Below the pieces are notes generated by a model that was not told where the DNA came from, did no database searches, and saw only the letters and a program-made list of their open reading frames with translations. Of a stretch of 64,000 bases of DNA, positions 7,142-11,193 are shown one piece after another (positions within the stretch are counted from its first letter, which is position 1; each line of letters opens with the position of its first letter). Made by a program: the position numbers and the translations under genes. The stretch lies in assembly GCF_054482595.1 (NCBI RefSeq), contig NZ_CM137008.1; one strand, written 5' to 3'.

Positions 7142-7285
7142 TGGATGATAAAAAAAATAATTCCCGCCGTAGTCTGTTTGTTGCTTTGTAGTTGCACGAC
7201 CTTTCCGCAAGCTGTCGCTCCGGTAAACGGTGATGCCTCCAATTAGTTGAATTAAGGATATAATACTCGCTTTTAAGGTTGTTTC

Positions 7286-7558
7286 ATGGTCACAGTTAAC
7301 CTTCATTGTCCCCGTTGCCAGTCCGTTCAGGTTTACCGTCACGGGCAGAACCCCAAAAGACATGATCGATTCCGCGGCCGTGACTGTCACCGGGTATTTC
7401 AGCTCAGTTACTGTTACGAGCCCCGTAAACCGGGAGTTAAAGACCAAATCGCTGAAATGGCTTTCAACGGTGCCGGGGTTCGCTATACTGCCCGTACGCT
7501 GAAAATCGGCATTAATACAGTCATCCGAACTTTAAAAAACTCTCGCCACGAAGAATAA
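7286..7558 (+). CDS. insA: IS1 InsA-like protein (zinc-finger/HTH)
   Basis: 90-aa ORF MVTVNLHCPRCQSVQVYRHGQ...NGAGVRYTARTLKIGINTVIRTLKNSRHEE; CxxC...CxxC layout and C-terminal LKNS tail as in IS1 InsA, but strongly diverged. Confidence 0.8.
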   Translation: MVTVNLHCPRCQSVQVYRHGQNPKRHDRFRGRDCHRVFQLSYCYEPRKPGVKDQIAEMAFNGAGVRYTARTLKIGINTVIRTLKNSRHEE

Positions 7559-7990
7559 CGTCATCCCCGGTCGCTCATGCTGATGTGGCACTCATCTGCG
7601 AACTTAGTCAGCAATGGAGCTTTGTCGGCAGTAAAGCGCGACAGCACTGGCTCTGGTACGTGTACAACACGAAAACTGGTGGTGTTCTGGCCTACACTTT
7701 TGGCCCCCGGACTGATGAAACCTGTCGTGAATTGCTGGCGCTGCTTACCCTTTTACCATCGGCATGTTGACCACTGACGAATGGGGTAGTTACGCTAGAG
7801 AGTTACCAAAGGAGAAGCATCTGACTGGTAAGATTTTTACTCAGCACATTGAGCGTAACAATCTGACCCTGAGAACCCGAATCAAACGTCTGGCCCGCAA
7901 AACCATCTGTTTCTCGAGTTCTGTAGAACTTCATGAAAAAGTCATCGGTGCTTTTATCGAAAATATATGTTCTACTAATTGGAGTCATCA
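7540..7990 (+). pseudogene. insB: IS1 insB-like transposase region carrying an extra frameshift
   Basis: InsB-like similarity (QQWSFVGSKARQHWLWYVYN...) continues in one frame to a stop near 7770, then resumes in another frame (YPFTIGMLTTDEWGSYAREL...HEKVIGAF). Confidence 0.6.
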
Positions 7991-8047
7991 CCCTTCTGAT
8001 GAGCTTTCCTTGGATGATTACCAGACTGAATACACAGCCAAAGATTT

Positions 8048-8371
8048 TTACCTCATTCTGCTCTTTTTTCTCAAATGACATATATTATATTTTACATCAT
8101 ATTCATAGGCATATGACATTCCCCCGCCCCCCATTATGTCATTGTGGGTTGATGTTGGGCTTTCATAAAAAAATACATCTTTTTTTGAACTAGCATTAAT
8201 TATATTTACTTTATATATTAAAATATTTTCTCCATCTGGAAATATTTTAGCCACACAATATAAAGCAGCTAAATCCGAATTACTTAAAAATACATTGTCA
8301 TCACTCATAACTCCAGCCATTAAATGACTGGAGACTAAAGCAAGGAAATAACAACATTGTATTGCCTTCAT
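8048..8371 (-). CDS. Putative immunity protein for the adjacent Rhs C-terminal toxin; hydrophobic N-terminus
   Basis: ATG at 8371 lies 1 nt after the toxin stop (8373-8375) with GGGAG 8 nt upstream; product MKAIQCCYFLALVSSHLMAGV... about 107 aa; AT-rich. Confidence 0.65.
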   Translation of the reverse strand: MKAIQCCYFLALVSSHLMAGVMSDDNVFLSNSDLAALYCVAKIFPDGENILIYKVNIINASSKKDVFFYESPTSTHNDIMGGGGMSYAYEYDVKYNICHLRKKSRMR

Positions 8372-8372
8372 T

Positions 8373-9410
8373 TTAATTACTCCCTTGCCTGATAATTGTA
8401 ACTCCATTCCCTTTAGCTTTGGGATTATATTTTAGATAGGTGTTATTTGGTGTTCCCAAGTAACTACTGTATTCTTTTTTTCCCATTCCATTCATATAAG
8501 AATTCGTTAAATCTTTGCTTGAAAAATTTAGACTATCATAAACATCATTTTCTTTTGTTACTTTATTTCCTTTATCGTCAGAGTAAAAACCGTGAGTGTG
8601 ATAATCGCCTACTCTCTCTGAACCTTCAGGGCATTTTATATTTCGCAAGTCTACACTATCATTATCATTTGAACTTATCGGATTCATGGGAAAATATTCA
8701 CCTTGCTTCTTACATATTAGTCCACCATATTCTTTAATCTCGTTAATTGATTCTCCATTACACATTGCCAATGCAAATATTCCAATATCATCTATATTTT
8801 TTGATTTAAATTCATATAATCCCAATGGATCCATGCCATTCACCGGGCTCAGCGGATATGTATACAGGTTCCATCCCCCCTTCAGCCCAATCGGATCCTG
8901 AGTGATATACCGCCCCTGCAGCGGGTCATAATAGCGGTGGCGGTTGTAATACAGGCCGGACTCCTCATCATACTGCTGACCCGGCAGGCGGATGAGCTGC
9001 TGCAGCTGGTGCGGGTTCTCTTCATTCAGCAGGTTGCCCCATTCATCGTATTCTGCGCACCATTCTGTAGCCCCTTCCGTGCTGATAAGCGCCAGCGGCA
9101 GGCCGCGATGGTCGCAGTGGTACAGGTGGATTTTTCGCGCCGGCGTGTACACCGGGTCCATCTGGTTTTGCATCTGCTCCACCGTCAGGCCGCACGATGC
9201 CAGCCAGCGGCGACTTTCCTCACTCACCCGGTCAGCCAGGATTTCACTTTCCAGCCGGTCGAGCATCTGCACCAGCACCGGCGGGAACACCACACTGCCA
9301 CCGTCTTCGCCGCCGGACTGCTGAAGCGCATCCGCCAGGCTGCGGCGCTGCGTTTTCGCCAGCTCACCGGTGGCGGTTTCAACCCTGATGAGTGGCGTGA
9401 AGCCAGGGCA
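8373..9410 (-). CDS. Orphan Rhs core-end plus C-terminal toxin domain (5'-truncated, no native start)
   Basis: Frame is open from the H-repeat junction (about 9410): [32 protein letters not shown]...[17 protein letters not shown]...[10 protein letters not shown] followed by a 147-aa AT-rich variable domain (about 8373-8816). Confidence 0.8.
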
Positions 9411-10653
9411 AGATTACGAAAGCCCGCTCCCCGCAAGGACTGACGCCAGATAGTTTCTGTCCATGGCTGCTTTTCGCATCTTACGTCTTAACCCTGCCTT
9501 GAATACCTTATCATTCGTCAAAATATTAATAGCAATGTGCCGTATCCCTGAAAATAATTCTGCTGCATTTCCTCTTCTTATTTTGCAGTCGTCTTCATTC
9601 ATTACCACGTCCAGACGCCAGTGCAGCTTATTCTCCACGTGCCAGTGATTTCGGATCGCTGTGGCGAATTTCTCAGCGGTTAAATCAGCAGAACTGATAT
9701 AATATCTGACCGTCATTTCTGGCTCTTTCTTTTGCTCTGCTATTATGGACCGAAAGGAGACTGCCACGCATAATTTCTTCAGCCCTTTCCATTCAAACGT
9801 GAAATCAATAAGTTCATCAGGGACATCGCAAACAATATGAAGACGGATTTCTTCTCTGCCGTGACTCTTTTCACTAATTGCGTAACTGTCATGCTCTGGA
9901 TTATTTAATTCTTTCAGCGGAAATTTTTCCTCAAAGGCTTTATTAAGCCGCCCCTGGTTACCTTTTACCGCGAATAAATAATCACCGCCCTGTTTTTGTA
10001 TCTTCTCTGCGATATCTTTCTGGCAACCCATCGCATCAGTTGTGATAATTTTCCCTTTAATATCCAGCATGTTAAGAAGTTCAGGGATAGCTGTAATCTC
10101 ATTAGATTTCTCATCCGTCTTGATCTGTCCGATGACCAGACTGTGCATTGTTGAGAACGCACTAATGACATGAATCGCTCCCCTGCGGCGACTCTTGTCA
10201 TAAGAATGCCGGAGCGTTTTTCCATCAATTGCAATGACGTCTTTATCATCTGAAGAATGACAATCACGCATCCAGTTAATAAAGCACTCATGAAATTTTG
10301 TAGGGCTGATACAGGATACAACTCTGGCAATGGTATCGTGAACAGGAATACCATTTTCAAAATCACCATATTGCTTCAAAAAATCGAGATGTGTTTCCCC
10401 AAAATCCTCTATATCTTCCCAACCTTCTGCACCCGAAATAACGGCACAAATAGTCAACAGTAGAATATCTGATAATTTATGTTCCACTTTCTAGGCTTGT
10501 CTGTAATCGGGGATAATAGAAATATGTTCCATCAATTTTTTAAGTTCCATTTTGTTCTCCTTAATTATACAAGGAGTATTTGATCATGTATAAGCAATAA
10601 AAGACAGCTTTAGGTAATGAGGAATATCTCAATTTTTAAACATAAAATGCGAA
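9411..10653 (-). mobile_element. H-repeat (ISAs1-family) element inserted within the Rhs remnant; boundaries approximate
   Basis: Contains the ISAs1/H-rpt transposase reading frame; flanked by the Rhs N-terminal fragment on one side and the Rhs core-end on the other. Confidence 0.6.
9414..10550 (-). pseudogene. ISAs1-family (H-repeat-associated, YhhI-like) transposase with in-frame amber stop at codon 20
   Basis: ATG at 10550 reads MELKKLMEHISIIPDYRQA then TAG (10493-10491), continuing in frame as [37 protein letters not shown]... (357-aa ORF from GTG at 10487). Confidence 0.75.
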
Positions 10654-11076
10654 TTATTTAGTACAAAAAGTGTACTTCTGATGATCTTTCCCTGGAAACA
10701 GGTGCTCAAAATACAGGCTTCTGCCGCCGTTATCACTGAGTATCAGTGTGTTATCGCGCAGCTGTAAGCGGATATCCGCAGGCATTTTCCAGCCGGGGCC
10801 GAGGCTCCCCACCGGCGCGGGCGTTTTTGTCCGATAACTGCTGTAGGTGCGGGAGAGAATGAACGGCAGCGGGGCGGGCAGGGCGATGTCGGTTTCACCG
10901 GGAAGGACCTTTGCACCCAGCAGCGGATTGACCGGATGGCCGGACGTCACCCCGCCGGGGCACACCGAACAGGCCACGCCGGTGGGGGCACCGATGCGCA
11001 CCCCGGCTGAACCCTGGACAATGCTACCGCCATACTGCGTCATGTCGCCCTGACGCGCCGCCGGTTTTCCGCTCAT
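10654..11076 (-). pseudogene. Rhs N-terminal fragment (PAAR domain) truncated after about 125 aa of Rhs sequence
   Basis: MSGKPAARQGDMTQYGGSIVQGSAGVRIGAPTGVACSVCPGG...LRDNTLILSDNGGRSLYFEHL is the typical Rhs N-terminus; unrelated tail FPGKDHQKYTFCTK then stop. Confidence 0.8.
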
Positions 11077-11193
11077 CGTAAAATCCTTTTGAAATAAATA
11101 AGAACCAGAAGCCTAGCGCCAGTCAACAACAGGAAATGATAATGAGTTAACACCCCGGAATTTTTCAGAATTTATAAAAGGCAAATTACAGGC

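Follow-up and report, generated by a model that had tools for sequence, protein, structure and literature searches.

A frameshifted IS1H copy, very probably a fossil, at the left edge of an Rhs remnant island in Escherichia coli

We analyzed a 64,000-nucleotide stretch of DNA (contig NZ_CM137008.1 of assembly GCF_054482595.1; hereafter the window) which carries, between yiiX and rpmE, the 5' remnant of a TIGR02117-family lipoprotein gene, an IS1-family element of 764 bp (7229-7992) and the remainder of an Rhs remnant island (Table 1). Island features were taken from the annotation of E. coli XH990, which shows 3 mismatches to the window in 50 kb. In strains S10 and NCTC10537, an intact 207-aa TIGR02117-family gene lies between yiiX and rpmE, and the same arrangement is also found in E. 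coli C and B derivatives. In the window, homology to this ancestral arrangement breaks off precisely at 7228|7229 and is picked up again at 11189, directly ahead of the rpmE terminator; in between, 550 bp of the TIGR02117-family gene are replaced by the 3960 bp of the 3.96-kb Rhs remnant island. The left boundary of the island thus coincides exactly with the IS1 element, which the preliminary description of this DNA had already taken to mark the island edge.

Table 1. Features of the IS1H copy and of the adjoining Rhs remnant island (window coordinates)
Feature	Position	Strand	Evidence or remark
TIGR02117-family lipoprotein gene, 5' remnant (signal peptide and ca. 13 residues), cut by the IS	7143-7228	+	Homology ends at 7228
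Left inverted repeat (IRL)	7229-7251	+	GGTGATGCCTCCAATTAGTTGAA; 21/23 positions identical to IRR
insA ORF, 90 aa, open	7286-7558	+	Pfam Zn_ribbon_InsA 3.7e-19, HTH_Tnp_IS1 1.4e-28
A6C programmed -1 frameshift motif (AAAAAAC)	7534-7540	+	Direct sequence reading
First insB' segment (-1 frame relative to insA)	7537-7770	+	Ended by TGA 7768-7770
Unprogrammed 1-nt deletion, CCCC to CCC	7748-7750	+	Alignment to intact relatives
Second insB' segment (further -1 frame)	7749-7963	+	Carries conserved TTDEW and QxIERNN
Second unprogrammed 1-nt deletion, A5 to A4	7960-7963	+	Overlooked in the preliminary description
Right inverted repeat (IRR) of the IS1H copy	7970-7992	-	21/23 positions identical to IRL
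Island remainder after IS1H	7993-11188	-	RefSeq annotation of near-identical strain XH990
dsORF-f3	8048-8371	-	RefSeq annotation, XH990
Rhs C-terminal fragment	8373-9407	-	RefSeq annotation, XH990
ISEc1/H-repeat pseudogene	9414-10550	-	RefSeq annotation, XH990
Rhs N-terminal fragment	10684-11076	-	RefSeq annotation, XH990

The yiiX-rpmE interval occurs as three alleles in E. coli, namely the intact TIGR02117-family gene (E. coli B, C, S10 and NCTC10537; loci L009 and L010 7048-7671), the IS1H element with the Rhs remnant island (ca. 2400 genomes), and a clean deletion (K-12 and many others). In K-12, the region corresponding to 7143-11181 is entirely absent. Within the island, rhs (8373-11076, minus strand) is split by a copy of ISEc1 (H-repeat, ISAs1 family) which has an internal stop of its own. 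Two further loci (L007 and L015) carry a long rhs ORF at the same site; the window keeps only N- and C-terminal Rhs fragments. The name RhsF used in an EHEC paper refers to a different locus.

Both ends of the element carry imperfect terminal inverted repeats of ca. 23 bp beginning with GGT(G/A)ATG, as is characteristic of the IS1 family. An 18-mer (GGTGATGMCTCCAATTAG) is found exactly and in inverted orientation at both element ends and nowhere else in a search of the 64-kb window, where its chance expectation is 0.04. With 764 bp, the copy falls within the family range of ca. 760 to 770 bp, compared with 768 bp for IS1A and 766 bp for IS1N and the intact members of the IS1H group. The coding region follows the family layout in that insA, encoding a zinc ribbon and a helix-turn-helix (HTH) domain, precedes insB' (DDE_Tnp_IS1), which is read in the -1 frame (Pfam PF03811, PF12759 and PF03400), with the A6C motif in the overlap between the two, and the repaired protein scores 247.9 bits against NCBIfam NF033558. 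An uninterrupted InsAB' with conserved acidic catalytic residues is missing. Two 1-nt deletions and an Asp108Ser substitution make the copy a pseudogene member of the IS1 family. It also lacks an 8-9-bp target duplication, which is a trait of the window copy and not of the family. The classical IS1 of E. coli K-12 (IS1A) shares with the copy inverted repeats starting with GGTGATG, insA, the A6C motif and insB' at an overall length of ca. 768 bp but is only 52.6% identical at the nucleotide level, and its InsA matches that of the window at 34 of 90 positions (38%). These results bear out the preliminary description, which had reported IS1-like terminal inverted repeats, an A6C slippery motif at the end of insA, and a divergent IS1-family element whose InsA is far removed from that of classical IS1.

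The copy is assigned to the IS1H isoform group (IS1H being an ISfinder isoform name) via the IS1H label that RefSeq gives to copies from this locus with 99.1-99.7% identity to it. In E. coli, the RefSeq name (PGAP) is either 'IS1-like element IS1H family transposase' or plain 'IS1 family transposase', and every record opened gives the status as pseudogene, 'frameshifted'. The window allele bears the plain name, probably as a result of two extra amino acid changes, Arg206Lys and Arg212Ser. The element is thus already known, both as a named isoform and as an annotated frameshifted pseudogene. One IS1H has been reported for E. coli W and a pseudogene copy for strain Crooks (PMC3032704).

Intact members of the IS1H group were found on plasmids pSA20083530.1 of Salmonella enterica (L020; WP_114047604.1) and pEM148 of Escherichia marmotae (L021; WP_103194758.1). 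Both elements are 766 bp long, are 94.6% and 94.2% identical to the window copy at the nucleotide level, respectively, and have the same inverted repeats, A6C site and gene layout. Unlike the window copy, they possess an uninterrupted insB', Cys31, Asp67, Asp108 and the natural stop, and they encode a 231-aa InsAB' via the single programmed A6C shift. At the protein level, they match the repaired window product with 92-93% identity. A protein search had listed no intact relative above 87%, an impression overturned by the plasmid DNA search. On pEM148, an 8-bp target duplication (TGGTAAGT) borders the element on both sides. IS1N, an iso-IS1 from Shigella dysenteriae, has the same architecture and is ca. 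80% identical to the window copy at the nucleotide and 85-86% at the amino acid level; in contrast to the window copy, it is intact, represents a separate isoform clade and is present in many copies in S. dysenteriae. An 8-bp duplication (GGGAAATT) surrounds one IS1N copy (L013). Intact 766-bp copies that are ca. 80% identical to the window element also occur in Enterobacter and Izhakiella.

Given the 94-95% identity between the element and intact members of the IS1H group, the divergence of its InsA is an isoform-level feature and not the result of decay. The A6C motif is shared, at the equivalent position, with IS1A, with IS1N and with the intact copies of the IS1H group. Two substitutions affect the InsA domains. 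The zinc-ribbon ligand Cys31 is replaced by Gly (7376-7378) in the window and in all copies from the yiiX site. Asp67Tyr in the HTH domain (7484-7486) is found in the window lineage and is absent from the orthologous copy L007. Cys31 and Asp67 are kept in every intact relative that was aligned.

Beyond the programmed shift, similarity to the DDE_Tnp_IS1 profile is divided between two frames, with profile positions 1-55 found in frame 1 (7552-7770) and positions 61-127 in frame 0 from 7764 onwards (Pfam, E = 9.1e-32). The alignment shows that one C is gone from ACC CCT TTT (7747-7754), where the window reads ACCCTTTT; the corresponding sequence in L017, L020 and L021 is CTTACCCCTTTTACC or encodes an equivalent Thr/Ala-Pro-Phe-Thr in frame. 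A second frame switch in insB had been described near 7755-7770; the switch is real, but the indel behind it lies slightly upstream, at 7748-7750. The resulting CCC causes translation after the programmed shift to end at the TGA, and the product predicted with the programmed shift alone has 161 aa instead of 231. It therefore stops before the invariant Asp165, located in the TTDEW motif of InsAB', and before the conserved Glu190, in line with the earlier claim that InsAB is truncated ahead of its C-terminal catalytic region. Judging from conservation in the alignment, these positions presumably belong to the DDE triad. When one C and one A are restored, a 231-aa protein is obtained that aligns end to end and without gaps with the intact 231-aa transposases.

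Owing to the second deletion, the natural stop (TAA, 7976-7978) is no longer read, and the open frame extends across the IRR as far as 8078. At this site, ATCGAAAAA is found in all other copies of the IS1H group and of IS1N in the alignment, their proteins ending in EK(Y/H)MFY directly before the stop. In addition, the first insB' segment carries Asp108Ser/Glu109Gln (7606-7611), changing ELDEQW to ELSQQW; position 108 is Asp in IS1A and likewise in all intact relatives that were compared. Judging from these lesions, the copy can make no transposase any more and today is no more than a mark of the left island boundary.

With its natural stop lost, the open frame at 7764-8078 (plus strand) exits the IS and overlaps the 3' end of dsORF-f3, which is encoded on the opposite strand, by ca. 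30 bp. This overlap is probably meaningless.

Among 5426 complete E. coli genomes, 2401 (ca. 44%) contain a full-length copy. In 1957 of these, the two junctions fall inside the 964-bp span expected, and all full-length copies with at least 97.9% identity appear to belong to one locus. The remaining ca. 440 full-length carriers are presumed to have the element at the same site with a nested IS1F, one such locus (L015) having been opened. Here, a classical-type IS1F (L015 4775-5542) lies inside IS1H at the equivalent of window positions 7894-7903 and is flanked by a 9-10-bp duplication (CCGCAGAAC). L015 represents a live IS1 inserted in a fossil IS1, and by subtraction ca. 440 genomes would have this arrangement. 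At other loci, IS1H-group copies (L005, L006 and L017) show 90-94% identity to the window copy and have each been disabled by different lesions, all E. coli IS1H-group copies sampled being defective. L005, in a chromosomal island adjoining sul2 (92% identical), shows the CCC state together with other indels and a stop; this CCC may be due either to homoplasy in a homopolymer or to shared descent. L006, on plasmid pUTME-13, has a +1 change at the same site as the CCC deletion of the window. In L017 (Logan ERR4783725; 94% identical), two 1-nt deletions affect insA whereas insB' is undamaged, and an 8-bp duplication (AAGGGATG) is present. Virulence plasmids of O157 carry a fragment corresponding to element bases 1-555 at 89.7% identity.

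Direct repeats of 8-9 bp at 7229 and 7992, for which a check had been proposed in the preliminary description, are absent, as the flanks read ccggtaaac and cttctgatg. The same inspection of flanks does detect the duplications at L013, L017, L021 and the nested IS1F. The loss of 550 bp of target DNA beside the element would account for the missing repeats. No empty site with both IS flanks contiguous was found in all complete E. coli genomes, and a simple insertion consisting of the IRR, a 9-bp duplication and the rest of the TIGR02117-family gene gave no match in E. coli genomes. A second IS1H end or solo inverted repeat is not present at the other island boundary. We also considered a composite transposon and rejected it for want of a second inverted repeat; the only other weak match (39813) has 3 mismatches and is located inside rhaT.

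The interruption of insB' could be read in ways other than decay. Both deletions sit in short homopolymer runs (C4 and A5), which speaks for a sequencing or assembly error, an option also raised in the preliminary description. However, the identical 764-bp sequence is present in 21 independent complete genomes, and the 764-bp length and both deletions recur in every yiiX-site copy from complete genomes that was aligned. A query with both missing bases restored found no repaired allele in 5426 complete E. coli genomes, where the best match of 99.3% means that both gaps are still there. We thus regard the probability of an error as negligible. The two-shift arrangement might instead be natural, with a functional IS using a second programmed -1 frameshift near 7750. 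The shift required at this site is likewise -1, a C3T4 run is present, and the copy L005 at another locus is in the same state. Nevertheless, the intact 766-bp relatives, 94-95% identical, read straight across the site in a single frame, and those on pSA20083530.1 and pEM148 show the standard single -1 arrangement, in agreement with the original view that the second frameshift is non-programmed. CCCTTTT would be a slippery heptamer in the downstream frame only and not in the incoming frame. The copy further lacks a stop codon, the invariant Asp108 and the zinc-ligand Cys, the substitutions on its branch look neutral, and no movement is evident in 5426 genomes. A second programmed shift accordingly receives almost no credence from us, although somewhat more than an error does. 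A metagenome contig of 1166 bp that covers this locus (L016; ENA ERZ27262323, k119_31431) has CCCC at the base equivalent to 7747/7748, which makes the mid-insB frame continuous, and still carries the A-run deletion and Ser108. This CCCC allele was not found in complete E. coli genomes (best match 99.1% over a 214-bp span). Possible explanations for the contig are a rare older allele, in which case the mid-insB deletion may postdate the insertion, a reversion, or a fault in assembly.

Decay by neutral lesions also has to be weighed against continued use of the copy or of its parts. The insA ORF is open in every yiiX-site copy examined, which would fit a role of InsA for the host, e.g. as a repressor of other IS1 copies. 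Against such a role, all copies at the yiiX site have exchanged the zinc-ligand Cys for Gly, the family-conserved Asp of the HTH domain has become Tyr inside the window's own lineage, branch substitutions in insA fall mostly on codon positions 1 and 2, and a 270-nt ORF remaining open at no more than 2% divergence corresponds to chance expectation. We consider host use of insA exceedingly unlikely. Alternatively, the copy may be a non-autonomous element and not a fossil, its ends being movable in trans by transposases of the IS1H group or of the IS1N type. The inverted repeats, with their 21 of 23 matching positions, are nearly identical to those of intact relatives, several differently damaged IS1H-group copies occupy different loci, one of them (L017) with its 8-bp duplication, and some E. 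coli contain intact IS1N-like transposases. On the other hand, all full-length copies of at least 97.9% identity appear to sit at one locus, the lesions of L005, L006 and L017 differ and may postdate insertion, and IS1 transposase has been reported to act mainly in cis (PMC12903888). Mobility of the ends in trans is therefore very unlikely in our estimation, if less so than host use of insA. We place similarly little weight on the more specific scenario in which plasmid-borne transposases mobilised the IS1H copy and the group persists in E. coli as non-autonomous elements. If mobilisation in trans were true, the IS1H group would survive in E. coli as a non-autonomous family.

We consider it highly probable that 7229-7992 is a dead, vertically inherited IS1H copy that was joined to an Rhs element by rearrangement and then underwent neutral decay. 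On its branch, 18 coding substitutions have become fixed, with a distribution of 7/4/7 over the three codon positions, while two intact relatives differ by 14/7/56 (Fisher p = 0.011); this pattern fits neutral decay. From its distribution and sequence the copy appears to be immobile, with no sign that the yiiX copy ever moved. The preliminary description had likewise called it an immobile fossil, which agrees with both junctions being common to at least 1957 genomes.

The active ancestor would have had a length of 766 bp and the customary IS1 organisation, and would have generated 8-9-bp target duplications upon insertion. Its InsA, with zinc ribbon and HTH domain, would have acted as repressor, and its InsAB' transposase would have been produced via a -1 ribosomal slip at A6C. 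This ancestor presumably inserted in or beside the TIGR02117-family lipoprotein gene downstream of yiiX. The missing duplication points towards a subsequent rearrangement at one IS end, which may have joined IS1H to the distal end of an Rhs element and would have removed the 550 bp of the target gene together with one copy of the target duplication. Such a rearrangement could have been an IS1-type adjacent deletion or a recombination between two IS1H copies; an intermediate state of the IS1H-Rhs joining was not found. Later, one C (7748-7750) and one A (7960-7963) would have been lost neutrally and Cys31Gly and Asp108Ser/Glu109Gln gained, with Asp67Tyr as a further change in the window lineage.

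In conclusion, the finding matters little beyond annotation. The IS1H copy has three minor uses. It is a stable phylogenetic marker for the ca. 44% of E. coli genomes that have the yiiX-rpmE Rhs island, and its edge provides an exact junction for reconstructing how the island replaced the TIGR02117-family gene. It also shows, as a clean example, how an insertion sequence decays neutrally, with near-identical live relatives at hand for comparison.
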